Notes: a model not told the origin generated them from the sequence alone. 64,000 bases of DNA from an uncultured bacterium (GCA_965372795.1 CBDVDR010000013.1:37145-101144); one strand, 5' to 3'. Shown: positions 3,380 through 58,986, numbered from the stretch's first letter. Numbers and translations are program-made.

Positions 3380-6300
3380 CTACTTTGATTCAACAGTTTC
3401 ATTTGGGTGTATTCCATTCGCCAAAATTGATCCCAGATATGACATAGATCTGGCAATTCCAAAATTAACGAAATTATTGTACACACCGCTACCTCGTCCA
3501 TTCCCAAAATTTCTAAATCCAGCTTGCCCTAAAACATCTGCTGCAAAATGAGAACAGTTGGCACAATCAAAATCAAACGGTTCAACTCCGTTCTGTCTCA
3601 TTCTTGTATTAGCATATTCCGAAGCTCGACTGGCATTTCTGGAGGAAATCCTTTGAACAGAATATTCAAAAGGTCGTGGACCAAATCGCGGGTCAGGACC
3701 ATAAAATTCAGGTAAACCTTGTTCCATCTTATATGCTGCAACAAGAGAACGATCTTGAAGCCTCATTGCATTTTTTTCAAAGAAAGTAAAAGTAGAATCA
3801 GGATTTTCAACCACGGCTGCTGCATGACCTTCTGCAGTTTGACCTGGTCGTACACTTCTTGAGAAGCCTATTCCAATTCTTCTTCCGAAAATTGAAGGTA
3901 CAAAATTCCCCGCTGCATTCCCGATTAAAGTAAATCGGCCCAATCTTGCGTTCCAGGAATACGATGGTCCCAACCCTCTCATCTGACCGATTCTTGAACC
4001 ACGTCCAAAAGTTGCACCTCTGACACCCTTGAAACCAAATGGGGCTAAAGATGTAACTATATCAAATGTACCTGTTGCATAATTACCTTCAGCTATTCCG
4101 GCGACGCCATTTCTTACTCCATAAATTGCCAAAGGTACAGCTAATTCTGGTGCAACGACTAAAAGAGGACCAGCTACTACACCAATTCCAGTTGAAATTC
4201 CAAACTGCCCCCATTCCCATTCCTCTTGAGAACCTTCTGCAATAGCAATGTGCTGCCTTGTGGCATTAAGACCGCCTGAGACCAAAGCACCTACAAGCGC
4301 AGCTATCGCCAATCCTGCTAAAAATGCTAATTCTCCTTCTGGATCAATTAGATCAATCGGATTCTGAGCTACATAAACATATAAAGAAGGCGAGTCTGCA
4401 TATCCTTTAGGATCAGTTGATAAGTATATCCCATTTACGGGATTCATTAATCTTCGTTTAGATAGATAAAGACCTACAGAAGAAAGATATCGCTGACCAC
4501 CAAACACAGGCTCTAATCCGAAAGAGGATGTAAGAATTTTAACTCCGGCGCCATCATAAATTTCTGGCTCACCAAAGGACTTGTAACGGTAACTTTCTAT
4601 TAAATTCCCACCACTATCAGATAAGCCTATTAAATTGAATCGATTATCAAAAAGAGTATTGTAAGTGTCAGATAAAATATGATGGGATATTGGAACGCCT
4701 GTTATTGGATGAGATGTAATTTGTTTGGAAGCAATTCCATTTTCTTTTTCCTGCTCTACAATACCACCTAAGTAATTAAGGGACAGGATTGGTTTCCCTT
4801 GCTCTTTGACAATACTTGGTCTGCCTAAAGCATCATACTCTATTTTACAAACAATATTTATACCTGATTTTATTTCAATAATTCGTCCCAAGGCATCAAT
4901 TTCATAAGTTAACACGCTGTCATTTTGTAGGGAACCATCTGTATGATGAGTGTAAATATTTGTGCCATCGGTCTGAATTCTATAGCCGGGAGAATAAGAA
5001 TAATTCTTATCAGGGACACCTGATTCTGTATATTTCACCCTTGCGTCTGAGTGATTGTATTCAAAACCTTCTTCGTGTGAAGCTCCTGCTGAAGCTGTTT
5101 TGATGGCAGTAATAGCAGCATCGTGTTCTGCTTGTGTAATAGCATTTGATATCACAGACGCAAAACCGTTTTTCGCTTCAGTAAGCCTGTATTTTTTATC
5201 AAAATCGTAGAAACTAAGTTTAGGATTTTGACCTACAATAGCTTCAACCTGTTTTCTGTTTGCTGTATCATACCGGTACTTTAAATTTTTATTCAAACCT
5301 GCCGGACTATTAATCATGGTTTCAACTAATCGTTTTCTCTCATCATATTGATTAATAATATTTGTACCGCCCTGATAAGATGCTTCGCCGAAATAGTTAC
5401 TCCCACTTGGTTTAAAAGATGCTATAGGGCTTGTTCCATTCCCCAGCGTTCCGCCAACAGTTTCTTTGATTTCTAACAACACACCATTTAGATCATGTGA
5501 ATATTCTTCAGTTCGACCATCGGGTAATATTTTTTCAATTGTACCGGCATTATCATTATAATGACACGTTACATCGTCTCCATGAGTTTTCTCTAACAGC
5601 AATCGGCTAAGACTGTCATATTTTCGATCAACTTTATTTGTCCCAATTTTAGCCAACACTAATCGATCTAAACCATCGTAAGCAAATTCATGCGGTTGCA
5701 CCCCCGTTACAGATGAAGGTGCCCCAGTATTCTTAATATTGATTAACCTATTTGAACTATCGTATGTAAATTCAAATTTCACTCCGCTGCTTAATGTCTC
5801 TTCTATAACTTGCCCTTTGTCGTCAAATGTTTTGGTACTCGAAAAACCATTCGGGTAATCTGTTTTGGTTATTCTTCCAACGCCATCCATTTGGTAACTT
5901 GAAACCTGGCCGGTTGGGTCAATATATGACGTCAATCTGGACATATTATCTAAGATCCATTTATGAGTGATGTTTAATCCGCCGACATCATGAGTTTCTT
6001 CAACCTTATTGTTAAACGAATCGTACTTTGTTTGTAGGATAATCCCCAAATAATCCGAACGACTAACTTGTAAATTTCTGTCATCATATTCTAAGACAAG
6101 TTTAGCCCCATCAGGCTCTATCATTTCAACTATTCGGTCTCTTTCATCATAAGTAAAACTCTTAGTAATAATTGATGTTGTTCCATCAGGTTCGATATGA
6201 TGATTTTCTACTTGAAAAACATTTCCATTATTATCATAATCAAAATGTTCTTCATTACCCAGCGGATCGATTACTTTTGTTACTCTTCCTATCCCGTCAT

Positions 6301-39654: not shown

Positions 39655-40653
39655 ATGAAATTTATAGATTATGTAGAGATTGAAGTTAATGCCGGCAATG
39701 GCGGGCATGGTTGTGTAGCTTTTCATACTGAAAAATTTGTTCCCAAAGGCGGTCCTGATGGCGGCGATGGCGGCCGGGGCGGTAATATAATTGCCGTTGC
39801 TGATAGCCAACTGACCACCCTGCTGGATTTTAGATACAAACGAAAGTACAAAGCAATAAATGGACAACCCGGTAGCGGATCACTTAAAACCGGACGGTCC
39901 GGAAATCATACCTATTTAAAATTACCGGTTGGAACCCTGATTAAAGATTTCGAAACCGGGCAGCTTGTTGCTGATCTTGATATTGCCGGTACGGAAGTTA
40001 TTATCGCCAAAGGCGGCAAAGGCGGACATGGCAATGCCTACTATAAATCGCCCACCAATCAAACTCCCCGCAAAGCTCAGGATGGCGCTTCCGGTGTTAG
40101 CCTGAAAATATCACTTGAATTGAAAATTCTGGCTGATGTTGGCTTGGTCGGTTTACCCAATGCCGGCAAATCCACAATTTTGGCAGCATTTTCTGCTGCC
40201 CGTCCAAAAATCGCCGATTATCCATTCACTACCCTGAAACCGCACCTTGGGATTGTTAAACTGCATGGGTTTAATTCCTGCGTGATGGCTGATATCCCCG
40301 GATTGATCGAAGGCGCCTCGCTTGGTAAAGGGTTGGGACATCAGTTCTTAAAGCATATCCAAAGGACTAAACTGCTGATCTATGTGATCGATATCAATGA
40401 TCTTGATGTCGAAGAAACATATCAGACCCTGAAAGAAGAGTTAGAGAATTTTGATAACAATCTGCTAAACAGACCCACCTTTGTTGCGATAACAAAAGTT
40501 GATACTCTTACAGAAAGTGATCTTAAAGATATTTCCAAAACACTTCCAAATGATTATATTTATATATCAGCAGTAAGCGGGCAGGGTAAAGAAATTTTCA
40601 TTCAGGAAATTGAGCGCAAACTTGGACATAGAAAAGACAAAAAAATATATTAG
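39655..40653 (+). CDS. obgE: GTPase ObgE/CgtA
   Basis: Gly-rich N-domain, GLPNAGKST, DYPFTT, DIPG. Confidence 0.97.
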   Translation: MKFIDYVEIEVNAGNGGHGCVAFHTEKFVPKGGPDGGDGGRGGNIIAVADSQLTTLLDFRYKRKYKAINGQPGSGSLKTGRSGNHTYLKLPVGTLIKDFETGQLVADLDIAGTEVIIAKGGKGGHGNAYYKSPTNQTPRKAQDGASGVSLKISLELKILADVGLVGLPNAGKSTILAAFSAARPKIADYPFTTLKPHLGIVKLHGFNSCVMADIPGLIEGASLGKGLGHQFLKHIQRTKLLIYVIDINDLDVEETYQTLKEELENFDNNLLNRPTFVAITKVDTLTESDLKDISKTLPNDYIYISAVSGQGKEIFIQEIERKLGHRKDKKIY

Positions 40654-41737
40654 CTCAATCATCGCACTCCTCAAAATTCCGGGTGTGGGACGAGGTCGAT
40701 ATAGTAAATTAGTCAGGCATTTCAAAATACCGATGAATGTAATCAATGCCTCGATTGATGAACTTGAGACTGTACCTAATATTTCCCGCAATATCGCTTC
40801 GGCTATAAAATCTAAAATAAATTTAGACGAGGCGGAAAATATTACTGATAAAATTATTTCAATGGGCTGGACAATTCTTTATCCGGGTCATCCCGAATAT
40901 CCGCCGCAGCTGGATAATATTGCTTCAAAACCACCATTGTTGTTTAGAATCGGAAAACCGATTCTCCCTGATGAAAAGGTTGTTGCTATTGTCGGTACAA
41001 GAAGTTGCTCCGACAAAGGGAAAAATTTCGCTTTTCAATTAGCAATTTCATTAGCAAAAGAGGATATCACTGTGGTTTCAGGGCTTGCAGAAGGAATAGA
41101 CACCAAAGCTCATCAAGGTGCCCTTGAGGGAAACGGGCGAACAATTGCAGTTTTGGGCAATGCCCTTGATATTCTCTACCCCCCATCAAACCGCTCCCTT
41201 ACTGATAAAATCAAAGAGCACGGAACTCTATATTCTGAATATCTACCCGGTGACGGTCCCGAAAGAGCATATTTCCCCGAGCGAAACCGAATTATTTCAG
41301 GGCTTTCCTGCGGAGTTGTTGTTGTCGAAGCTGGTGAAAAATCAGGTGCGTTAATAACTGCCTCCCATGCCCTGGACCAGAATCGAGAACTTTTTGCTGT
41401 CCCGGGAGCGCCAAATAACCGAACCTCGACCGGAACCAACCGCCTAATAAAAAGCGGGGCAAGATTGTTGACTTCGGTTGAAGATATTTTCGAAGACCTC
41501 CCCCGACTAAAAGGCGGTTTTAAACCTAAAAAATACACTCAAAAGACAAATATCACCGACACCGAAAGAAAAATAATTGAACTTTTTAAGTCCGAACCGC
41601 TACAAATTGATTATATTTCTCGCCTTGTTAAACTGCCGGTTCGAGATCTACATGAATACTTGCTGGCATTGGAATTAAAAGGAGTGATTCGGGAAGTCTC
41701 TGGAAAGAGATTTGTTTTATCAGAAGAATATCTATGA
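40610..41737 (+). CDS. dprA: DNA-processing protein DprA (exact start uncertain)
   Basis: AIVGTR, VSGLAEGID, FPERNRIISGLS, SGALITA. Confidence 0.95.
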   Translation: MSANLDIEKTKKYISSIIALLKIPGVGRGRYSKLVRHFKIPMNVINASIDELETVPNISRNIASAIKSKINLDEAENITDKIISMGWTILYPGHPEYPPQLDNIASKPPLLFRIGKPILPDEKVVAIVGTRSCSDKGKNFAFQLAISLAKEDITVVSGLAEGIDTKAHQGALEGNGRTIAVLGNALDILYPPSNRSLTDKIKEHGTLYSEYLPGDGPERAYFPERNRIISGLSCGVVVVEAGEKSGALITASHALDQNRELFAVPGAPNNRTSTGTNRLIKSGARLLTSVEDIFEDLPRLKGGFKPKKYTQKTNITDTERKIIELFKSEPLQIDYISRLVKLPVRDLHEYLLALELKGVIREVSGKRFVLSEEYL

Positions 41738-42003
41738 TTAAGAAAACAACACAAATTGTAAATAGTCTTGGGCTTCATGCCCGCCCCTCTGCTTTGCTGG
41801 TAACCACAGCCTCTAAATTTCAAGCGGAAGTCTATTTCACTAAGGACGGTTTGAGAGTTAATGGTAAGTCAATTATGGGTGTAATGATGCTCGCGGCTGA
41901 AAATGGCTCTGATATTCTGATTGAAGTTGACGGTACTGATGAAAATGATGCTCTTGAGGCTTTAATCGAAGTAATTCAATCTGGTTTTGGCGAAAACAAA
42001 TGA
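41734..42003 (+). CDS. ptsH: Phosphocarrier protein HPr
   Basis: GLHARP (His15), NGKSIMGVMML (Ser46). Confidence 0.95.
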   Translation: MIKKTTQIVNSLGLHARPSALLVTTASKFQAEVYFTKDGLRVNGKSIMGVMMLAAENGSDILIEVDGTDENDALEALIEVIQSGFGENK

Positions 42004-42080: not shown

Positions 42081-43844
42081 ATGTTAAGTAAGAGAAAATT
42101 ACTAAAAGGGACGGCGATATCCCCGGGAATTATAATCGGGCATACCCGTATAATTGCTCCCGGTGTTATGGAAATACCGGAACTTGTCATACCATCTTCT
42201 CACATAAATAACGAAATCAATTCCCTTGATAAAGCGATTGCCAGTACCGTTGAAGAATTAACCGTATTACGGGATTCCGCCGGTAAAAAAATGGGCGGAG
42301 CAGTTGCCAAAATATTTGATGCTCAATTGATGATTGCCGGTGATATTGAGTTTTTAAAACAGGTTAAAGGTGAAATTGTAAATAAGAAACGTAACGCCGG
42401 ATATATTTTTCAAACTCTCGTCCAAAACACGACTCTGCCATTAAAAAATTCAACTGATACCTATATGCAGCAAATGGCAAAAGATATTGAGGCTGTTTCA
42501 TCAAAAGTATTAACTCATTTAAGCGGTACTGAGCGTTCCGGTCACCGATTTGCCCCCAACACAATTTTAGTCAGTAAATTTTTCTCACCGGGAGAGATTT
42601 TAAATTATCGCCAGAGAAAAGCTATCGGTTTCATCGTCTCAGAAGGCGGGAAAAATTCACACATGGCTCTTATTGCCCGGGCGATGATGCTTCCGACGGT
42701 CATGGTTGAAAATATCTGGACAAAAATAAATAACGATTGTGATATTATTGTCGATGGTTCCGAAGGTCTAATTATTGTTAATCCTTCTGATGAAGACCTG
42801 ATTGAATATCAAAAAAGAAAAAAGAAACAGGGACCGACGACAATCAAGCGTATAAAAAAACTTACCCCCTTCCCCCCTGTTACCAAAGATAAACAACCGG
42901 TGAGTATTGCCTCAAATCTTTCGTTCCCCGGTCCGGCTGATGATATCCTTGCCGATCAGAATATTCCGGTAGGATTATACCGAACAGAATTTTTATATCT
43001 GGCGAATGAATATTTCCCTGATGAAGAAACTCAGTTTGAACATTACAATAATATTGCTCAAAAATTTTCCGATACGAGTGTCATCTTTAGAACTTTTGAC
43101 CTTGGCTATGATAAACTAATTTCACAAAGTTATTGGCCCGAAGAAGACAATCCGGCTCTGGGCTGGCGTGGAATCCGTCCAATGCTTGAAATGACCAATA
43201 TTTTTAAAACTCAAATTAGAGCCATCTTAAGAGCTTCTACTTTAAGAAATGTCAAAATCATGCTGCCGATGATATGTGATTTGACCGAGTTTCTTAAAGC
43301 TAAAAAAATGATCTCTCAGGTAAAGTTTGCCCTGCGGAAAGAAAAAATAGATTTTGATCATGATATCGAAATCGGCATTATGGTTGAGATTCCATCAGCA
43401 GCTATTTCTGCTGATCTTATTGCCCAAAAAGTAGATTTTATCTCTATTGGTACCAATGACCTGACCCAATATACGCTGGCAGCTGACAGGTTGAATAGTA
43501 AAGTTGCCAATTTATACAATCCTTTACATCCAACGGTCCTCAAACTTATTAAAATGACGGTTGAGGCTTGTAAAAAGCATGGAAAACCGGTAGCAGTATG
43601 CGGCGAAATCGCCGGCGACCCCATTGCTTTACCGCTGTTTATCGGTATGGGAATAGATCAATTATCAATGAGCCCGAATAAAATATTTGATATTTGCAGA
43701 TTAGTTAAAAAAATTGATTCGCAACTGGCAAAACATTTCGTAAACTCTGTGATGGCAAGCTCAACTATAAAAGAAGTCATGGAGAAATTAAATACTTATA
43801 ATCTCACTTTTGATAAACAAAAAACCTTAACTGTAGGAAATTAA
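42081..43844 (+). CDS. ptsI: PTS enzyme I
   Basis: SHMALIAR, GLYRTEF, NPALGWRGIR, SIGTNDLTQY, CGE. Confidence 0.93.
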   Translation: MLSKRKLLKGTAISPGIIIGHTRIIAPGVMEIPELVIPSSHINNEINSLDKAIASTVEELTVLRDSAGKKMGGAVAKIFDAQLMIAGDIEFLKQVKGEIVNKKRNAGYIFQTLVQNTTLPLKNSTDTYMQQMAKDIEAVSSKVLTHLSGTERSGHRFAPNTILVSKFFSPGEILNYRQRKAIGFIVSEGGKNSHMALIARAMMLPTVMVENIWTKINNDCDIIVDGSEGLIIVNPSDEDLIEYQKRKKKQGPTTIKRIKKLTPFPPVTKDKQPVSIASNLSFPGPADDILADQNIPVGLYRTEFLYLANEYFPDEETQFEHYNNIAQKFSDTSVIFRTFDLGYDKLISQSYWPEEDNPALGWRGIRPMLEMTNIFKTQIRAILRASTLRNVKIMLPMICDLTEFLKAKKMISQVKFALRKEKIDFDHDIEIGIMVEIPSAAISADLIAQKVDFISIGTNDLTQYTLAADRLNSKVANLYNPLHPTVLKLIKMTVEACKKHGKPVAVCGEIAGDPIALPLFIGMGIDQLSMSPNKIFDICRLVKKIDSQLAKHFVNSVMASSTIKEVMEKLNTYNLTFDKQKTLTVGN

Positions 43845-43848
43845 TAAA

Positions 43849-44928
43849 TTGACATTGCTTAATGATGTAGAAAAAATCAGAGAACTCGATCCAGGTAATA
43901 TGTATAACAGCATTTTTGATTTACCGGAGCATATGGAAAATGCACTAAAAATATGTAAGAAATGGAAAATCAATCCGGATGATTTTTCTGATATTAAAAA
44001 TGTGGTTGTTGTAGGAATGGGTGGGTCAGCTATAGGTGGCGATCTGGTGCGATCATATCTTAATGCTAAGATCATGGTTCCGTTTCATGTTTGCCGACAC
44101 TATAATCTGCCAGAATTTGTCGATGATGAAACCCTCGTTATCGTCTCATCGTACAGTGGCAACACCGAAGAAACACTTTCTGCAGTTGACGATGCCCTGA
44201 CACGCAAGGCGATGATTGCTGCTGTCTCAACCGGTGGGATGTTAAACGAAGTTGCTGAACTTAACCAAATCCCAATTGCTATATTGCCTGAAGGAATGCA
44301 GCCTCGTGCAGCCCTGGGATATTCTTTCACACCGCTGTTATATTTGCTGGAAAAAGTCGGGCTGGTAAAAGATGTTGTAAGTGAACTAAAAACTACAACG
44401 GCAAAATTGAAACTATTCCGCGAAAACTATATCGAAGATATTTCAGTTGATAAAAACATGCCCAAAAAACTTGCTGAAAGAATTCAAGGCAAAATCCCGA
44501 TTATCTATTCCGGACCGACAATAACTGACGTTGTTGGATTTCGATGGAAATGCCAAATATGCGAAAACAGCAAGATCCTTGCATTTAATAACCAGTTTGC
44601 CGAGTTTAACCATAACGAATTGGTGGGATGGTCAGAAAAGATTGAAGAAAAAGGCGAACATCTGGTCGTGTTGATGCTTCGGGACTTTGATGATATGGAT
44701 CAGATCAAAGCACGAATGGATATTGTAAAAGAAATTATTGAAGCTCTTAATGTGGAAGTAATTGAAATTTATTCCCGCGGTGACTCGGTCCTGGAAAGAA
44801 TGTTTAGCTTAATCCAGATCGGTGATTTTGCTTCGTATTATCTCGCTATCCTAACTAATACAGATCCTTCTCCCGTTAATATTATTGATTATTTAAAAGA
44901 CTCGATTAGTGATTTAAAAAAGAAATAA
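43849..44928 (+). CDS. Bifunctional phosphoglucose/phosphomannose isomerase
   Basis: GMGGSAIGGD, SYSGNTEET, QPRAALG, ENSK, EFNHNE. Confidence 0.9.
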   Translation: MTLLNDVEKIRELDPGNMYNSIFDLPEHMENALKICKKWKINPDDFSDIKNVVVVGMGGSAIGGDLVRSYLNAKIMVPFHVCRHYNLPEFVDDETLVIVSSYSGNTEETLSAVDDALTRKAMIAAVSTGGMLNEVAELNQIPIAILPEGMQPRAALGYSFTPLLYLLEKVGLVKDVVSELKTTTAKLKLFRENYIEDISVDKNMPKKLAERIQGKIPIIYSGPTITDVVGFRWKCQICENSKILAFNNQFAEFNHNELVGWSEKIEEKGEHLVVLMLRDFDDMDQIKARMDIVKEIIEALNVEVIEIYSRGDSVLERMFSLIQIGDFASYYLAILTNTDPSPVNIIDYLKDSISDLKKK

Positions 44929-44942
44929 TTTTTTTGTAAATT

Positions 44943-44973
44943 AAAGCCTGTTATAAATTAACAGGCTTTTTTT
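44943..44973 (+). terminator. Intrinsic terminator
   Basis: AAAGCCTGTTA/TAACAGGCTTT stem plus T-run. Confidence 0.85.
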
Positions 44974-44999
44974 ATCACATTTCTCTTCTTAAAAACCAA

Positions 45000-45028
45000 T
45001 TGACAGCATACGATAAGTATGTTATTTT
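45000..45028 (+). promoter_or_regulatory. Sigma70-type promoter of the peptide-activator operon
   Basis: TTGACA-17 nt-TATTTT. Spacer contains palindrome CATAC-gataa-GTATG. Confidence 0.6.
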
Positions 45029-45140
45029 AAAATAGATTAGGAAAGGTCGTACAAGATCTCAAACCTACTATTTCTGTATCCGCCAAAAATTGAAAAGTAA
45101 ATACACATAATAGACACATTTTAAAAAATGGGAGTGTTGT

Positions 45141-45521
45141 ATGAAGTATTTTGTATCACTGTTGATACTGGTATTATTCCTTACTGTCCCTTGGAATACT
45201 GCTGTATCCAAAATGCATCCAGACACCTATAAAGATTTACTTCGCCCGGATGGCGACGATCATCCTTGGGGTGGTGAAGAAGTAACAAACCCGGATGATT
45301 TCCTTAAATCAATTGATGAACCGGCTATTCCGATCTATACCGGTTATCTTATCCTCGACTTTGCTTTTAATAAACTTTTCAGACCTGTAATTTTACAGAT
45401 CAGAAACGATGTGATAAATACTCCCAGCCAGGAGAAACAAATCACAGTTAACACCTATTCACCAAATAGAGATTATCAACCTGTAAGCACAAGTGGAACA
45501 TATGAGGGTAAAGGTAATTAA
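45141..45521 (+). CDS. Small secreted protein, candidate signal propeptide
   Basis: GGGAG RBS, Sec-type signal peptide, low-complexity mature part with GDDHPWGGE. Stop is 2 nt before the activator ATG. Confidence 0.7.
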   Translation: MKYFVSLLILVLFLTVPWNTAVSKMHPDTYKDLLRPDGDDHPWGGEEVTNPDDFLKSIDEPAIPIYTGYLILDFAFNKLFRPVILQIRNDVINTPSQEKQITVNTYSPNRDYQPVSTSGTYEGKGN

Positions 45522-45523
45522 AC

Positions 45524-47773
45524 ATGAAATTAGCTAAAAGCACTGAATCAGAATTCTGTGAAGCTATGGCTCATTATATTGAGTCGTTGATAGCCAAACG
45601 GGATTTTTCAGGTGTTATTAGATATTATCAGGATAATTGTAATGATATCGATAACGCCGGAAATATCACGGCAGGATCGATTCTTCGCAACATTGCTATT
45701 GCTCACGCTTCCTTACATGATTACCAGATTGCACTAAAAAATATCAGACTTGCTCAAAATCTCATTGTCCGTGATGGTGACAGCATTGTTCTTGCTGAAA
45801 CTTTCATGACTCTTGGAGGAATTCTAAGAGACAGCAATGAGCTTAAGGAAGCGGAAAAAGCATTTCGCGATGCGGAATCGATTTTCCGTCGCAATGACAG
45901 CTTAGACGGCCAAAGTAGAGCATTGAACCTTCTTGCCGGTTTATTTTACCGACAAAATGATTTCAGAAATGCTCTGTCTGTACTTATGGACGCGGTTGAA
46001 ATTGCAGAAAAAACAAACGACCATAAAAAGCTTGCCTTCATGATGGGCAACCTTGGAAGAATTTATTCTTTCACTGGAAATTTCAAAGATGCAAAAAAGA
46101 ATTTGCTCATCAATATCGATCTTTCCAAAGAACTGGGCGATCAATTAGAAACTGCTCGCGCCAGAATGTCCTATGGATATATTTGTATCCAGGAAGGCTC
46201 TTACAAAGAAGCCGATGAAATTCTAAACAAAGCCTTGAAAGCGACCATCTCTTTAAAATCCGGAAGAGATGAAGTTATGTGTCTGACATACATGGGTGAA
46301 TCATATTACCAGCAAAAGTTATATGAACAATCCCATATAACTTTAAACAAGGCTCTTTATCTGTCAGAAGCCATTTCACCTGACTCGACCATGACTGCCA
46401 GAATACGCAGACATCTGGCCGAATTAAATATCAGACAAAAGAATTTCCGAATAGCTCAGAGATTAACCAACAAGGCTATGCCAGTCATGAAAAAACACCA
46501 TGTCTTAGTGGAGATTGGTGCGCTATGGAAAATTCTTGCCCAGATCGCTGATGAAAATGGCGATCATGATAAAACGAACAGTTATTTCAGCAAAGCTTTT
46601 GAAATGCTGGACAAATCATCCGTCCGCTTTGAAAAGGTGGATGCATTAAAAGCTGCCGGATGTTGCCAAACATTTAACACTAAAAAACGGCTGACTTATC
46701 TTTTCCGGGCTGAAGAATTTTATTCGGGCAACAACCTCGTATCTAAACAGAATGAAGTTGCAAAACTTATTCAGGATACTGATCAGGAAGTTTCTATTTA
46801 TCGGAGTAAGTCTCCGAACAAAAATATTCTTCCCAAAAAGATTGATTATATCTCAAATAATAAAGAGATCAAAAGGTTCAAATCTCAATTGCCCTTGATT
46901 GGCAAAAGTGACATTCCAATCCTGATAACGGGAGAAACCGGAGTCGGAAAAGACCATATGGCAAAATATTTCCATTCTCTGGTTCGCAGTGATCGCCCCT
47001 TTAAGGCTATCAACTGTACTTCTATCCCGGAATCACTAATGGAATCCGAACTTTTCGGCTTTAAGAAAGGCGCTTTTACCGGCGCAGTAGCTGACAAGGA
47101 AGGACATTTTGTCTCTGCCGACGGTGGAATTTTATTTCTGGATGAAATTGGTGATATGCCGCTTTTATTACAGGCAAAACTTCTCCGTGTCCTTGAAGAC
47201 AGAAAGGTACTTCCCTTAGGATCTACAAAGGAAATAGAGATTGATGTCGTACTCGTTACGGCTACTAACCAAAATCTTCTTCAAATGGTTGAGGAAGGTA
47301 AATTTAGAAGAGATTTATATTTCCGTATAAGTGCGATCACTTTTGAGATTCCTCCCCTAAGAAAACGCACGGAGGATATTCCTCTTTTATTAAATTATTT
47401 CATGAAGCATAGCAAGCTCTTCAAAGAAGGGGAACCTCTCCCCTCAGAACTTGTGCACCAGTTCATTCAATATGAATGGCCCGGTAATATTCGTGAAATG
47501 GCAAACAAGATCAAACGTCTTGAAATTATGTCTGAACTCGTTGCCGAAGGTGACCTGGTCGAACTTTCAAGAACGATCTTTGTATCTGAAGAAATTGAAC
47601 AACCAATCGGTTTGTTTGAACGGGTCGAAACGTTCGAACGAAAATTGATTGTTGAAGCTCTATTGGCGGCTCGTGGAAATAAATCGGAAGCTGCCCGTAT
47701 TTTAGGTATTCATGAGGCAACTGTTCGTACGAAACTTAAACGGTACGGCATAAACCTTGATCGAATTCATTAA
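45524..47773 (+). CDS. TPR-domain sigma54-dependent enhancer-binding protein
   Basis: N-terminal TPR array. GETGVGKD, ESELFG..KGAFTGA, LFLDEIG, RRDLYFR, WPGNIRE, Fis-type HTH. No receiver domain. Confidence 0.93.
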   Translation: MKLAKSTESEFCEAMAHYIESLIAKRDFSGVIRYYQDNCNDIDNAGNITAGSILRNIAIAHASLHDYQIALKNIRLAQNLIVRDGDSIVLAETFMTLGGILRDSNELKEAEKAFRDAESIFRRNDSLDGQSRALNLLAGLFYRQNDFRNALSVLMDAVEIAEKTNDHKKLAFMMGNLGRIYSFTGNFKDAKKNLLINIDLSKELGDQLETARARMSYGYICIQEGSYKEADEILNKALKATISLKSGRDEVMCLTYMGESYYQQKLYEQSHITLNKALYLSEAISPDSTMTARIRRHLAELNIRQKNFRIAQRLTNKAMPVMKKHHVLVEIGALWKILAQIADENGDHDKTNSYFSKAFEMLDKSSVRFEKVDALKAAGCCQTFNTKKRLTYLFRAEEFYSGNNLVSKQNEVAKLIQDTDQEVSIYRSKSPNKNILPKKIDYISNNKEIKRFKSQLPLIGKSDIPILITGETGVGKDHMAKYFHSLVRSDRPFKAINCTSIPESLMESELFGFKKGAFTGAVADKEGHFVSADGGILFLDEIGDMPLLLQAKLLRVLEDRKVLPLGSTKEIEIDVVLVTATNQNLLQMVEEGKFRRDLYFRISAITFEIPPLRKRTEDIPLLLNYFMKHSKLFKEGEPLPSELVHQFIQYEWPGNIREMANKIKRLEIMSELVAEGDLVELSRTIFVSEEIEQPIGLFERVETFERKLIVEALLAARGNKSEAARILGIHEATVRTKLKRYGINLDRIH
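47746..47761 (+). promoter_or_regulatory. Sigma54 -24/-12 promoter inside the activator gene 3' end
   Basis: CGGCAT-AAACC-TTGAT, correct spacing, close to the copy at 48119. The -12 box is the GA variant. Confidence 0.5.
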
Positions 47774-47885
47774 AATACAATTAAGATGTCGGGACCGGGT
47801 ATAGCCAGTCCGGTCTCGATGTGTATACTTATACACTCCTTGGTTAGCGGTATGTGTCTCACCAGTGCATACCGCTTTTTTATTT
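47772..47885 (+). ncRNA. Candidate sRNA 1 (or structured 3' UTR)
   Basis: Long hairpin 47786-47822, ACACTCCTTGGT anti-SD-like segment, terminator AGCGGTATG/CATACCGCT plus T6. Confidence 0.5.
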
Positions 47886-48005
47886 ATAATAAAGTTATCA
47901 AATAAAATTTATATATCGTATCTATGGTATGACAAAGCAAAATATTGTGCATCATGCATATATTGAATAGTCACAATAGGTTACATAGTTATTAACAGTA
48001 CCAGC

Positions 48006-48021
48006 TCGTATTGACATACGA
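48006..48021. promoter_or_regulatory. Candidate upstream activator sequence
   Basis: TCGTA-ttgaca-TACGA palindrome about 130 bp upstream of the predicted start. IHF-like CATTAACCACTTA at 48077-48089. Confidence 0.4.
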
Positions 48022-48118
48022 ATTACAAATCTAAAATAGTTCAACCGATCAGACATCCAAACATTAACTTGTTTAACATTAACCACTTATTCGCATGATG
48101 CAATCGTATTTATGCCTG

Positions 48119-48134
48119 TGGCATAAAGTTTGCT
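48119..48134 (+). promoter_or_regulatory. Sigma54 -24/-12 promoter
   Basis: TGGCAT-AAAGT-TTGCT, near-consensus TGGCAC-N5-TTGCW. Confidence 0.8.
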
Positions 48135-48143
48135 GTATATCAC

Positions 48144-48240
48144 AGTGTCATTTTACTCTCTAAGCGCTGTTGTCGTGCTTGGTTATATCTTCTCTTTGGT
48201 GAAACCACCCACATTCGAGGGGAGTGTGGGTGGTCTTTTT
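48144..48240 (+). ncRNA. Candidate sigma54-dependent sRNA 2 (~95 nt)
   Basis: Between the sigma54 promoter and terminator ACCACCCACATTC/GAGTGTGGGTGGT-CTTTTT. No credible ORF. Internal hairpin CTAAGCGC/GTGCTTGG. Confidence 0.7.
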
Positions 48241-48637: not shown

Positions 48638-50077
48638 GTGGAGAGTAACACAATAGTCGCTGTTTCGTTTATTGCATATAGTTTAATAGTTATTCTTATT
48701 GGACTTTATACTACCCGTTTTAGAAAAAAAACCGGTGAAGATTTTGTTTTAGCCAACCGTGAACTTGGTCCCTGGGCAGCATCATTGTCTGCCTCGGCGA
48801 GTGCTGAATCCGGCTGGGTGATGCTTGGTCTGGTCGGGATGGCTTTCACATCCGGCTTGTCAGCCCTTTGGATCGCCCCCGGCATCGGACTCGGCTATCT
48901 TTTTAACTGGTTCGTTTTAGCCGAAAGATTACGCAAGGAATCATTGTCTTTAAATGCTGTAACGCTGCCTCAATTCATTTCTAAAAAATTTGATGTCAAC
49001 TCGAAAGCCCTCCGTATTATTCCGGTTATAATTATTTCTCTGGCGATGCTTGGATATGTTGCCGCCCAAATGAATGCCGCCGGCAAAGCCTTTGAAGCAA
49101 CATTTTCCATCCCATATATCTGGGGAGTTTTTGCCGGAGCAGCAATAATTTTAGCCTATACCGTCACCGGAGGCTTTAGAGCGATTTGCTGGACCGATAT
49201 TGTTCAGGCATCATTTATGTTGATTGCTTTAATAGGCATGCCTTTAATCGTAATGTTTGATCAGGGCGGTTACTCGGCAATTGTTACCAAACTAAGCTCA
49301 ACGAATCCGGAGTTACTAACTTTGAGCGGAACCAACACCGGGTTTGGATTTGTCGGATTTATAGTAGGGATGATGGGGATCGGTTTAGGGTACCCGGGTC
49401 AGCCGCATGTACTCGCGCGATTTATGGCATCAAAAGATAAAGACACCATTAGCAAGGGCGGCGTAATTGCTTTTGTATGGTTTTTCTTTGTTTACATCGG
49501 TGCCACCTTTTTCGGTCTGTTTGCCCGGGCATATTTTGGAACCCTTGCCGATCCGGAACAGGCTCTCCCGCTGGCTTGCAATGAATTTCTCCCGCCGGTT
49601 CTGGCTGGATTTGTAATCGCTGCAATTGTTTCAGCAATCTGTTCAACTGCTGATTCGCAATTGATCGTTGTATCGTCAACAGTTTCCCGCGATATAATTC
49701 CACTTTTTAAAAAAGATAAAATTCTTGAAAACAACTTTGCTAAAGTTCAACTGACTGATAGATGGGTACTGATTGTGCTTGCTTTACTTTCGGTTATTTT
49801 CGCGCTATCGGAAAACCGCGTCATTTTTGAATTTGTCCTTTATGCCTGGTCGGCGCTTGGTGCCTCGTTTGGACCTTTGATGATTTTAGCGTTACTGTGG
49901 AAGAAGACTACTAAAGAGGGTGCGATTGCCGGGATGTTAACCGGATCAATTGTGACTGTAGTCTGGAAAAATATAACTTTTTTGAAAGATATTGTATATG
50001 AACTTGTTCCGGCATTTATTCTGGCATTTATTGCGGTTTGGATTGTGAGTTTGTTAACATACAAAAAGGAAAATTAA
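48638..50077 (+). CDS. putP: Sodium/proline symporter (SSS family)
   Basis: SASASAESGW, GGFRAICWTD, GYPGQPHVLARFMA, STADSQL. Confidence 0.85.
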   Translation: MESNTIVAVSFIAYSLIVILIGLYTTRFRKKTGEDFVLANRELGPWAASLSASASAESGWVMLGLVGMAFTSGLSALWIAPGIGLGYLFNWFVLAERLRKESLSLNAVTLPQFISKKFDVNSKALRIIPVIIISLAMLGYVAAQMNAAGKAFEATFSIPYIWGVFAGAAIILAYTVTGGFRAICWTDIVQASFMLIALIGMPLIVMFDQGGYSAIVTKLSSTNPELLTLSGTNTGFGFVGFIVGMMGIGLGYPGQPHVLARFMASKDKDTISKGGVIAFVWFFFVYIGATFFGLFARAYFGTLADPEQALPLACNEFLPPVLAGFVIAAIVSAICSTADSQLIVVSSTVSRDIIPLFKKDKILENNFAKVQLTDRWVLIVLALLSVIFALSENRVIFEFVLYAWSALGASFGPLMILALLWKKTTKEGAIAGMLTGSIVTVVWKNITFLKDIVYELVPAFILAFIAVWIVSLLTYKKEN

Positions 50078-57594: not shown

Positions 57595-58986
57595 ATGAAG
57601 TTAGGTTTAGGATTAAATTTAGGGTTAAGACAGTCTTTAGCACCCCAGCTAATTCAGTCTCTGAAAATGCTTCAAATGCCAATTTTGAAGCTTGAGCAGA
57701 CGATTAGACATGAACTTGCTATTAATCCAATGCTCGAAGAAGTGGAAGAACTTGAACCGGATGCAGAATCAACAGATGATACTGAAACTGAAGATTCTAC
57801 TGAAGATGCGATTGATTGGGAAGAGTACCTCTTTGATGATGAAGAAGGATATAAAGTTTATGAAGCTCGTGAATCGGCTGAAGAAATTTTCGAGGGTACT
57901 GCCTCAGCTCCAATAAATCTGTATTCTCATTTAACCGAACAGCTATCACTTCTAAAACTTTCTGAAATTGAACATCAAATCGGCGAATACATTATTGGGA
58001 ACATTGCCCCGGATGGCTACCTGACAATTAGTGTCAATGAAATGGCATCCGAACTCGATATTGATGCGGAAATTATCGAATTAGTGTTAAAACATATTCT
58101 CACCTTCGACCCCATTGGCGTAGGTGCCCGGGATCTGAGAGAATCACTGATGCTGCAACTTGAAGATAAAGGGATGAAAAACTCTCTTGCTTATCGTATT
58201 GTCGATGAACATATTCATGAATTGGACAGAAAATCAATTTTACAAATTGCAAAATTAATGAGTGTCCCGGCTGAAAAAGCTCAAGCAGCCATGAATATTG
58301 TTAAAAACCTCTCGCCTACTCCTGCTCAGGGAAGATTCGACGCCGCCGCTATGCCGGTTGTGCCGGATTTAATGATCGAACGAGTCGGAGATGAATTCAT
58401 TGTCTTCCATAATGACAACCATGCCCCTCGCCTTAGAATTAACAGCAACTACCGGGCTTTGGTAAAAAGAGGCAATACCTCATCAAACGATACCAAAAAA
58501 TATATTAAGCAAAAACTCGAACAGGCTCGCTGGCTTCTTAACTCAATCAACCAAAGACGCACAACTATGATTCGTGTCATGGAATCGATAATTATCAGAC
58601 AAGACGAATTTTTTGAGAATGGTCCGGAATTTATTAAACCGCTGATTATGGAAGAAATTGCACGGGATGTTGATATGAATGTAGCCACAATCAGTCGGGT
58701 ATCAAATAGTAAATATGTACAAACTCCTTTTGGGGTTTATGAAATTAAATTTTTCTTCAATTCCGGCATTTCCATGGAAGATGGCGAGGACATGTCAAAA
58801 CGTTCGGTTAAACAGCGAATTCAGGAAATTATCAACGCTGAACCGCTTGAAAAACCGCATTCTGACCAGGAAATTTTCAGGAGATTAAACGAAGAAGGCA
58901 TTAAGCTGGCGCGACGGACTGTGACAAAATACAGAGAAGAAATGAAAATTCGTCCGGCTCGCTTAAGAAAAAGAGTAACGGGATAG
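57595..58986 (+). CDS. rpoN: RNA polymerase sigma-54 factor
   Basis: Gln/Leu-rich region I, ATISR HTH, ARRTVTKYR RpoN box. Confidence 0.97.
   Translation: MKLGLGLNLGLRQSLAPQLIQSLKMLQMPILKLEQTIRHELAINPMLEEVEELEPDAESTDDTETEDSTEDAIDWEEYLFDDEEGYKVYEARESAEEIFEGTASAPINLYSHLTEQLSLLKLSEIEHQIGEYIIGNIAPDGYLTISVNEMASELDIDAEIIELVLKHILTFDPIGVGARDLRESLMLQLEDKGMKNSLAYRIVDEHIHELDRKSILQIAKLMSVPAEKAQAAMNIVKNLSPTPAQGRFDAAAMPVVPDLMIERVGDEFIVFHNDNHAPRLRINSNYRALVKRGNTSSNDTKKYIKQKLEQARWLLNSINQRRTTMIRVMESIIIRQDEFFENGPEFIKPLIMEEIARDVDMNVATISRVSNSKYVQTPFGVYEIKFFFNSGISMEDGEDMSKRSVKQRIQEIINAEPLEKPHSDQEIFRRLNEEGIKLARRTVTKYREEMKIRPARLRKRVTG

Follow-up and report, generated by a model that had tools for sequence, protein, structure and literature searches.

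A small exported protein, a sigma-54 activator built on tetratricopeptide repeats (TPRs) and a single small RNA (sRNA) form a cassette that, in the genomes compared, recurs in a fixed layout across one order of the Zixibacteria. We describe it from a 64,000-nt stretch of DNA (GCA_965372795.1, CBDVDR010000013.1:37145-101144; hereafter the window, with positions counted from its first nucleotide) that comes from an uncultured sediment bacterium of Candidatus Zixiibacteriota (Zixibacteria). An initial annotation of this stretch had proposed a dedicated circuit of a small exported protein, a TPR-type sigma-54 activator and sigma-54-dependent sRNA, and the conservation reported below bears the proposal out: the cassette is real, conserved and undescribed. 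What is new is its predicted output. An unlinked operon contains a zf-HC2 anti-sigma gene whose Shine–Dalgarno sequence (SD) and AUG have their antisense in the sRNA's 5′ end (GUCAUUUUUACUCC), with compensatory changes in many genomes. Given that the tip of the sRNA is complementary to this start site, the likely effect of the cassette is to turn on an alternative sigma factor.

On balance, we think it probable that these parts make up a dedicated cascade of one Zixibacteria order, in which the TPR activator turns on the sigma-54 sRNA, the sRNA holds down the anti-sigma factor and an extracytoplasmic function (ECF) sigma factor is released. A sigma-70 promoter would drive a leader, the exported protein with its H-P-W-G motif and, by translational coupling, the cytoplasmic TPR–AAA+–HTH activator. 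An element in this operon's 3′ untranslated region (3′UTR) would pair with the ribosome-binding site (RBS) of the small open reading frame (ORF), in cis on one and the same mRNA or else as a 3′-derived RNA, giving negative autoregulation. The activator would bind two TCGTA-N6-TACGA palindromes ~107 and ~195 nt upstream of a −24/−12 promoter and fire one ~95-nt sRNA, whose 5′ end would pair with the SD and start codon of the membrane anti-sigma mRNA, so that less anti-sigma factor is made and the ECF sigma factor is freed; that the pairing represses is a direction we infer. The input would be a ligand of the TPR superhelix, and the co-encoded exported protein is the prime candidate for it. The parts and their conservation, the fold of the RNA, the spacing of the palindromes and the two co-varying complementarities are read from sequence and its comparison; repression by pairing, action of the 3′UTR element in cis or in trans and the nature of the input belong to the proposal.

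The sRNA and Its Predicted Target

Our comparisons draw on three samples: 29 cassette loci (20 from a first round and 9 of 14 fetched later, the remaining 5, in which the activator pattern was unmatched, being left out of the small-ORF count), 41 related genomes (numbered with a G; the window genome is G000) and 101 genomes representing the order, in families f1–f4. The initial annotation had suggested checking whether homologues of the TPR activator keep the small ORF and a downstream promoter/terminator unit, and they do: an ORF with H-x-W-G precedes the activator in 29/29 loci, and the sRNA is found in 71 of the 101 genomes of the order (f1, 46/48; f2, 5/5; f3, 14/14; f4, 5/33). It was not found in 68 genomes from the other families of the phylum. 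The covariance model used for this search (R1) scores the window copy at 95.3 bits and found exactly one copy per genome, and no Rfam family matches the region at its gathering score, the best match in E-value mode reaching 25.9 bits against a cut-off of 49.

The predicted transcript starts at ~48145, where conservation begins, given the −12 C at 48133, and in relatives it consists of GTCATTTTTACTCC, a stem-loop, TCTTTTCTCTTTGGTG and a terminator with a near-invariant GAGGGGA loop. The window copy has a minimum free energy of −34.7 kcal/mol (z −4.65), and 18 aligned copies fold into two helices. Across 31 homologues, 93.7% of the cells are paired and 16 of the 19 pairs show double changes; none of 500 shuffles reached the observed values, and slid registers left 36–54% paired. 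The homologues differ by indels of 1–2 nt and have no coding potential. In the terminator, the loop GAGGGG(A/U) (48217–48223 in the window) is near-invariant in the same 31 sequences and the stem co-varies.

As the seed is antisense to the arrangement SD–spacer–AUG–AC, the 41 genomes were searched with GGAGTAAAAATGAC, allowing up to one mismatch. There were 11 exact matches: four are sRNA genes, six are the start sites of one family of anti-sigma factors and one is unrelated. Members of the family are ~188 aa long, start with MTC, are hydrophobic in a central segment and carry a zf-HC2 motif (PF13490; 27.9 bits, the cut-off being 22.2). Only 3 nt separate the gene from a preceding ECF sigma gene (PF04542, PF08281, PF07638; TIGR02937 with 111 bits against 42.9), and a gene for a DUF6263 lipoprotein comes next; the operon is conserved, with deoB behind it, in the 21 loci inspected.

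The two sides of the predicted duplex change together. An A-to-G variant, GGAGTAAGAATGAC, is found in both the sRNA and the anti-sigma start in G013, G006 and G014; paired changes read GGAGC/GCUCC in G003 and G010, GGAGAAA/UUUCUCC in G024, AUGACG/CGUCAU in G011 and CUCGGGAG/CUCCCGAG in G023; and in G012, the spacer is shortened on both sides. Over 25 genomes, matched duplexes average −25.5 kcal/mol against −21.2 kcal/mol for mismatched ones (permutation p = 2e-5, the relatedness of the genomes being ignored); a test of sense against antisense duplexes was not significant (p = 0.19). In one genome, G018, the orthologues of the activator and the anti-sigma factor and the sRNA are all missing together. 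The duplex structures also suggest, by eye, a second contact, between GCGCUG of the sRNA and CAGCGC near the end of the sigma ORF.

For the second pyrimidine stretch of the sRNA and the start of the lipoprotein gene, 15 genomes whose start codons are uncertain gave −17.9 kcal/mol against −16.4 kcal/mol (p = 0.019), a weak signal that we take as a lead only, and perfect complements of this stretch (CCAAAGAGAAAAG, up to one mismatch) were no more frequent in the 41 genomes than those of a reversed-pattern control. Feedback through pairing of the sRNA with the start of the small ORF was considered and rejected: matched pairs were at −15.1 and mismatched pairs at −15.7 kcal/mol (p = 0.89), with best sites that lacked consistency. 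Upstream of the target operon, most of the loci L136–L158 show, by eye, a CGTCT word ~30–40 nt before the ECF sigma start; as such a word is typical of ECF −10 boxes, it suggests that the target operon is autoregulated.

The Promoter and Its Upstream Palindromes

The layout downstream of the activator gene is common to 26 of the 29 loci: a TCGTA-N6-TACGA palindrome, a single-stranded motif, terminator 1, a second palindrome, ~100 nt of variable sequence, YGGCAY-N5-TTGCT and, ~12 nt on, the conserved RNA. The palindromes thus flank the operon's own terminator. The −24/−12 element is conserved by strict pattern in 16 of 20 loci, the rest having near-matches. Measured to the −24 GG, palindrome centres in relatives lie at 97–110 nt (proximal) and 183–198 nt (distal), and the proximal position keeps within its range in 21 loci.

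We predict that the palindromes are binding sites of the activator. In the f4 genomes, where the genes for the sRNA and the activator lie apart, the former has retained both palindromes and the promoter, which fits the site of a trans-acting protein. The exact word occurs once in the 3.35-Mb genome (48006–48021), with ~3.9 copies expected by composition, and among 61 sigma-54-like sites in the genome, only the promoter at 48119 has such a palindrome upstream (113 nt before it); with a single palindrome-bearing promoter, the activator probably has this sRNA promoter as its sole target. A separate observation from the same genome is that contig C8 has four identical sigma-54-like words, TGGCACAAATATGGCA, at 4255, 10003, 16753 and 20815, outside the window; they are on one strand, ~4–7 kb apart, and may belong to a repeated gene or element.

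The Activator and the Small Exported Protein

The activator, a bacterial enhancer-binding protein (bEBP), consists of ~10 TPR-like repeats (residues 1–430), an AAA+ domain with GAFTGA (443–606), a lid and an HTH_8 domain (701–741), and it has no membrane segment. Pfam assigns it four TPR_12 matches, Sigma54_activat (PF00158; 3.9e-60, residues 443–606), AAA_lid_14 and HTH_8, and GAFTGA can be read literally in the translation (KKGAFTGAV), so that the intact GAFTGA activator with TPR input described in the initial annotation is confirmed. Full-length orthologues with 37–62% identity are encoded in 39 of the 41 related genomes; G018 and G030 gave matches at the level of the AAA+ domain only.

Kinship of the TPR array with RRNPP receptors, to which the initial annotation had likened the system, is not clearly supported. 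The domain is modeled with high confidence as 21 helices (mean predicted local distance difference test [pLDDT] 93.3), and its profile matches LGN in the PDB at 3.7e-22, far better than RapJ (3.7e-9), RapI (4.2e-8) or NprR (7.4e-4). By sequence and by fold, the best matches are TPRs of LGN/Pins solved with peptides in the groove, followed by consensus TPRs, OGT and kinesin light chain, and there is no RRNPP receptor among the best 50 Foldseek matches of the model. The modeled fold resembles the peptide-binding TPRs of LGN/Pins rather than RRNPP receptors.

Of the small protein, the initial annotation had described a signal-bearing ORF of 126 aa with GDDHPWGGE and the activator 2 nt on, and this is what the window contains (45141–45521, the activator following at 45524). 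An ORF of the same design, 110–136 aa long, lies directly upstream of the activator in 29/29 parsed loci, the gap between the two ranging from −26 to +18 nt. The N terminus is a hydrophobic leader that, by eye, looks like a signal peptide. An alignment of 28 orthologues leaves M1, H41, W43 and G44 as the only invariant positions; at position 42, most sequences have P and a few loci T or N, and the motif reads [DE]-H-P-W-G-G-[DE]. An AlphaFold2 model (mean pLDDT 70) has helices at 2–19 and 70–93, that is, a signal-type helix, a disordered stretch with the H-P-W-G motif, a confident helix and a disordered tail. Neither Pfam nor NCBIfam holds a family for the protein, and a protein atlas search gave no usable match; its 36 relatives in a collection of 5.8 billion proteins are all nameless or called 'hypothetical protein', and an organism is given for three of them, in each case Zixibacteria.

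The pairing of the two genes recurs in paralogues. Two 720-aa TPR–sigma-54 activators, L166 (in G013) and L167 (in G011), each have their own small exported ORF with a Trp motif upstream, DEWPW and LPW...ETGW, respectively, and in G011 this ORF is in tandem copy; the recurrence supports a cognate pair. In G013, the paralogue is followed by approximately six TTCGTA half-site repeats and a −24/−12-like site, TGGCAC-N5-TTGT. To us, the paralogous activator and its small ORF look like a second channel of the same design.

The 3′UTR Element

Behind the activator, the initial annotation had seen two tandem sigma-54 sRNAs, each with a pyrimidine-rich motif. Both motifs are there (CTCCTTGGT at 47837–47845 and CTCTTTGGT at 48192–48200), and the second unit stands, with its promoter and sRNA; the first has no conserved sigma-54 promoter and, from its position and sequence, is the 3′UTR of the activator rather than a sigma-54 sRNA. 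A pattern scan of 20 loci gave at most one sigma-54 site per locus, always before unit 2, with none conserved before unit 1. The only candidate for unit 1, cGGCATaaaccTTGAt, lies inside the end of the activator ORF and was rejected, as its −12 GC is missing.

Unit 1 contains an element, CUCCUUGG, that is the reverse complement of the small-ORF RBS and co-varies with it. It was the string TKECVMK in the translated region upstream of the small ORF that exposed an RBS conserved at the DNA level, AACCAAGGAGTGTgtcATG, which is the exact reverse complement of the 3′UTR motif ACACTCCTTGGTT. In relatives, the RBS is conserved as AACCAAGGAGTGT, the single-stranded motif before terminator 1 reads ACTCCTTGGTT in most f1 loci and the terminator stem has the conserved word CGGTAAGyG. 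The 13-mer is near-unique in the genomes, and in G015, exact copies are found only at these two sites. When the 620 nt that follow the activator are scanned for duplexes with the small-ORF start region, the element is the best site in most f1 loci, with −19 to −29 kcal/mol. Matched pairs of RBS and 3′UTR average −20.4 and mismatched pairs −17.4 kcal/mol over the 29 loci (permutation p = 5e-5, a value inflated by the kinship of the genomes).

Compensatory changes are seen in L015 (ACGTAGGAGTA with TACTCCTACGT), in L020 (AACCATGCGA with TCGCATGGTT, −31.8 kcal/mol) and in the f3 loci (GCAAGGAG with CTTCTTGC), and L016 shows a paired departure (AAAGGAGTGTAAC with GTTACATTCCTTT). Reverse complementarity and co-variation of the element and the RBS point to autoregulation, that is, to an operon that may limit itself in the manner of OppZ or icaR. 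In L019, the 130 nt behind the activator stop contain an insertion of six tandem units of ~19 nt (GAACCCACCCTTGTGGGCT), which separates the stop from the element.

Discussion

The closest analogue in logic is CJnc230 (FlmE) of Campylobacter jejuni, an RpoN-dependent sRNA reported to repress the anti-sigma factor FlgM (König et al. 2024, PMC11187230). There, as in our model, a sigma-54-dependent sRNA directly targets an anti-sigma mRNA and a second sigma factor is released; CJnc230, however, is reported to arise by processing of the flgE mRNA, as part of the flagellar hierarchy, and to act on the FlgM/FliA pair, whereas the sRNA here has its own promoter, an upstream activating sequence (UAS), a dedicated TPR activator and a zf-HC2/ECF pair as its predicted target, and without an Rfam match, it has no sequence relation to CJnc230. 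Of two other sRNAs with an anti-sigma target, OmrA and OmrB, we can say that they are under the control of EnvZ–OmpR and, to our knowledge, have not been reported as sigma-54-dependent. They have multiple targets, unlike the present system, in which the activator apparently has a single promoter. OmrA/OmrB repress FlgM synthesis in Escherichia coli (Romilly et al. 2020, PMC7549644), and there, as in our model, the cognate sigma factor becomes more active when an sRNA pairs with the mRNA of its anti-sigma factor.

For the self-limiting operon, precedents are the autoregulatory 3′UTR-derived sRNAs OppZ and CarZ (Hoyos et al. 2020, PMC7398697) and the 5′–3′UTR pairing of icaR (Ruiz de los Mozos et al. 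2013, PMC3868564). The likeness is that a 3′UTR element just before the operon terminator complements the RBS of the same operon; unlike there, the element here lies between two predicted activator-binding sites, and Hfq was not found in this genome. An activator gene adjoining a sigma-54-dependent sRNA gene is familiar from LuxO–Qrr of Vibrio, Pxr, NrsZ and CrcZ, where bEBP-adjacent sigma-54 sRNAs have a UAS, a −24/−12 promoter and a terminator. The input of those systems is a phospho-receiver and not a TPR array, the RNA here is unrelated to theirs in sequence and fold, and the activator scores 198.7 bits against the LuxO family, below its cut-off of 800. RRNPP receptors (Rap, NprR, PlcR and AimR) are cytoplasmic TPR regulators with an adjacent propeptide gene; shared with them are the cytoplasmic TPR regulator beside a signal-peptide gene and the paralogous pairs within a genome, and different are the effector, an AAA+ sigma-54 activator, the host, probably a diderm, and the TPR array, which is nearer to LGN/Pins. 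None of CJnc230, OmrA/OmrB, LuxO–Qrr, OppZ/CarZ and icaR is homologous to the parts described here. We found no literature joining Zixibacteria and sigma-54, and among the matches listed for TPR, sigma-54, EBP and small RNA, and for small RNA, anti-sigma and ECF, the circuit is undescribed in titles or abstracts.

Several observations weigh against the cascade as we propose it. In the window genome itself, the sRNA/anti-sigma pairing is weaker than in relatives: the seed GUCAUUUUACUCUCU pairs with the start site GGAGUAAUGAAUGAC with a 2-nt bulge, the anti-sigma start ranks 130th of 10,541 candidate starts against a 19-nt seed and 264th against 45 nt, and the top matches are unrelated exported or membrane proteins rather than anti-sigma paralogues. 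The RBS/3′UTR pair of the window is likewise weak (−14 to −15 kcal/mol), its own start site coming 24th of 29 on its own 3′UTR. Elsewhere, pairing with the anti-sigma start is weak in G002, G022 and G032, and the f2 sRNAs have a different 5′ end, without the GUCAU seed; furthermore, being antisense to a generic strong start site, the seed may have other targets. Both permutation tests ignore relatedness. The transcription start and 3′ ends of the sRNA, and any RNA derived from the 3′UTR, are sequence predictions, and a physical contact of the exported protein with the cytoplasmic TPR domain is hypothetical.

The fullest version of our proposal would have the TPR–sigma-54 activator read the H-P-W-G motif of its exported partner, either because the motif comes back as a signal or because it gauges export, and relay it to the ECF sigma factor via one anti-sigma-silencing sRNA, with the sensor operon self-limited by the 3′UTR–RBS contact and paralogous pairs serving as private channels in an uncultured diderm phylum; taken whole, this is tentative, and we are doubtful that every part of it holds. 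A narrower idea about the input follows the peptide quorum sensing of the initial annotation: as in RRNPP systems, the exported protein would be cleaved outside and an HPW peptide re-imported to bind the TPR groove and switch the activator. The small ORF is indeed present upstream in 29/29 loci and translationally coupled to the activator, its invariant H-P-W-G falls where disorder is predicted, the usual setting of short linear motifs, the TPR array is like peptide-binding superhelices (LGN/Pins and KLC) with weak sequence matches to RapJ, RapI and NprR, and the two paralogous activators with their own small exported Trp-motif ORFs look like cognate pairs. We nonetheless regard this as unlikely, for LGN outdoes RapJ by 4e-22 to 4e-9, RRNPP receptors are missing from the best 50 structural matches and export, cleavage, re-import and binding are each hypothetical here. 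Moreover, in Phr and PapR, it is the short C-terminal peptide that is conserved, whereas here the architecture of the whole 120-aa protein is, including the helix at 70–93. Alternatively, the protein could act as a sentinel of export or envelope stress, with an un-exported precursor or membrane-held form binding the TPRs, so that failed export leads through the sRNA to the ECF sigma factor. An output operon of ECF sigma factor, membrane anti-sigma factor and lipoprotein is typical of envelope responses; with no membrane segment in the activator, a cytoplasmic encounter is the simplest topology; and tight autoregulation of the small ORF by the 3′UTR element would suit a dosage-sensitive sentinel. 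The argument is purely inferential, however, since our comparisons do not distinguish a precursor from a mature ligand, and as we know of no precedent for an export sentinel with a TPR-bEBP, we consider it rather improbable.

Other explanations concern the RNA elements. The sRNA could be a sponge or decoy for a protein, such as CsrA caught by the invariant GAGGGGA loop, instead of acting by base pairing; the near-invariant terminator loop on a co-varying stem fits this, as does a genome that encodes CsrA (on contig C11) and in which, at 98.65% completeness, Hfq (PF17209) was not found. Known CsrA sponges, though, carry many GGA-type loops and this RNA has one, and a sponge would leave the co-varying 5′ seed and anti-sigma start site unexplained, so we give the idea little chance. 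Still less do we expect unit 2 to serve the downstream gene as its transcribed leader or as an attenuator: a same-strand gene does follow within ~100–400 nt (the symporter at 48638 in the window, a BMC-H-like gene in nine f1 loci), but that gene varies between genomes whereas the RNA is constant, a strong terminator and its T-run close the RNA and in f4, the sRNA occurs in yet another context. As for the 13-nt inverted repeat formed by the RBS and the 3′UTR element, it flanks exactly the two-gene cassette and its copies co-vary, as terminal inverted repeats of a mobile cassette or recombination sites would. We find a role at the DNA level hardly credible nevertheless: the cassette is single-copy, syntenic, vertically conserved and free of any transposase, the left repeat is a functional SD inside a transcription unit, and several departures from complementarity are G–U pairs on the sense strand (e.g., in L016 and L115/L117). 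Sense duplexes are also the more stable (−21.0 against −17.9 kcal/mol for antisense), in a comparison biased to sense by the choice of sites.

If the proposed cascade is true, it would be the first worked-out regulatory cascade for Zixibacteria, joining three layers known separately: a sigma-54 activator, an sRNA and an anti-sigma/ECF sigma pair. It would offer a new sRNA family together with a co-varying predicted target, and the TPR input, which together with a cognate exported protein is seen again in paralogues, is a candidate for a new route by which extracytoplasmic or export information may reach sigma-54 promoters. The 3′UTR–RBS contact, in turn, would be a deeply conserved example of operon self-limitation beyond Proteobacteria and Firmicutes.

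Features of the Locus and Its Surroundings

Further elements named in the initial annotation are in place (Table 1): the terminators are terminator-like hairpins, the sigma-70 promoter is present upstream of the small ORF and rpoN, encoding sigma-54, follows ~10 kb downstream of the cassette. Of the 29 loci, 27 have a TTGAC-N15-19-TAnnnT site ~140 nt before the small ORF.

Table 1. Coordinates of the cassette and associated features in the window
Feature	Position	Strand	Details
Left boundary of the unit: terminator of the preceding SIS-isomerase gene	44943..44976	+	Hairpin 44943-44969, 11 pairs, and T-run
Sigma-70-type promoter	45000..45028	+	TTGACA-17-TATTTT, with TG
Leader, ~105 nt	45035..45140	+	SD of small ORF, GGGAGTGT, at 45130-45137
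Small exported protein, 126 aa	45141..45521	+	GDDHPWGGE; from ORF listing
Sigma-54 activator (bEBP), 749 aa	45524..47773	+	Starts 2 nt after the small-ORF stop
3′UTR anti-RBS element	47833..47845	+	ACACTCCTTGGTT; directly 5′ of terminator 1; complementary to RBS of small ORF
Terminator 1, end of the small-ORF/activator operon	47846..47883	+	Hairpin of 12 pairs (47846-47876) and T-run
Distal predicted activator-binding palindrome	47916..47932	.	Degenerate, TCGTA-N7-TATGA, by eye; centre 196 nt upstream of −24 GG
Proximal predicted activator-binding palindrome (UAS)	48006..48021	.	TCGTATTGACATACGA; centre 106 nt upstream of −24 GG
Sigma-54 promoter (−24/−12)	48119..48134	+	TGGCATaaagtTTGCT; TGGCAT-N5-TTGCT
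Predicted sigma-54-dependent sRNA, ~95 nt	48145..48240	+	From promoter, terminator and covariation
sRNA seed 1	48147-48158	+	GUCAUUUUACUC
sRNA stem-loop 1	48160-48182	+	
sRNA pyrimidine stretch	48189-48201	+	CUUCUCUUUGGUG
sRNA terminator	48204-48240	+	Loop GAGGGGA; hairpin 48204-48234 and T-run
rpoN (sigma-54), DNA-binding-domain part of a 465-aa frame	58498..58974	+	PF04552, 190 bits

RNAalifold gave no pairs in a consensus fold of the ~110-nt leader. Among the individual leaders (45035–45140 of the window and those of 28 loci, ~105–125 nt), a G-rich hairpin often stands at the start, and by eye, the C-rich word CCGCC is present in most loci and UCCCC in about half.

The upstream neighbours are ordinary: Obg and DprA at 39655–41737, then, named by eye from their translations, ORFs like HPr (41734–42003) and enzyme I of the phosphotransferase system (42081–43844) and, just upstream of the cassette, one like a SIS-type sugar isomerase (43849–44928). 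The gene after the sRNA encodes a Na+/solute symporter in the window (48638–50077; PF00474), and in nine f1 loci (L005, L006, L008, L010, L011, L013, L019, L020 and L107), the sRNA terminator is followed next by a gene whose product resembles a BMC-H shell protein (M..ALGLIETxGL...) and is extended at length at its C terminus.

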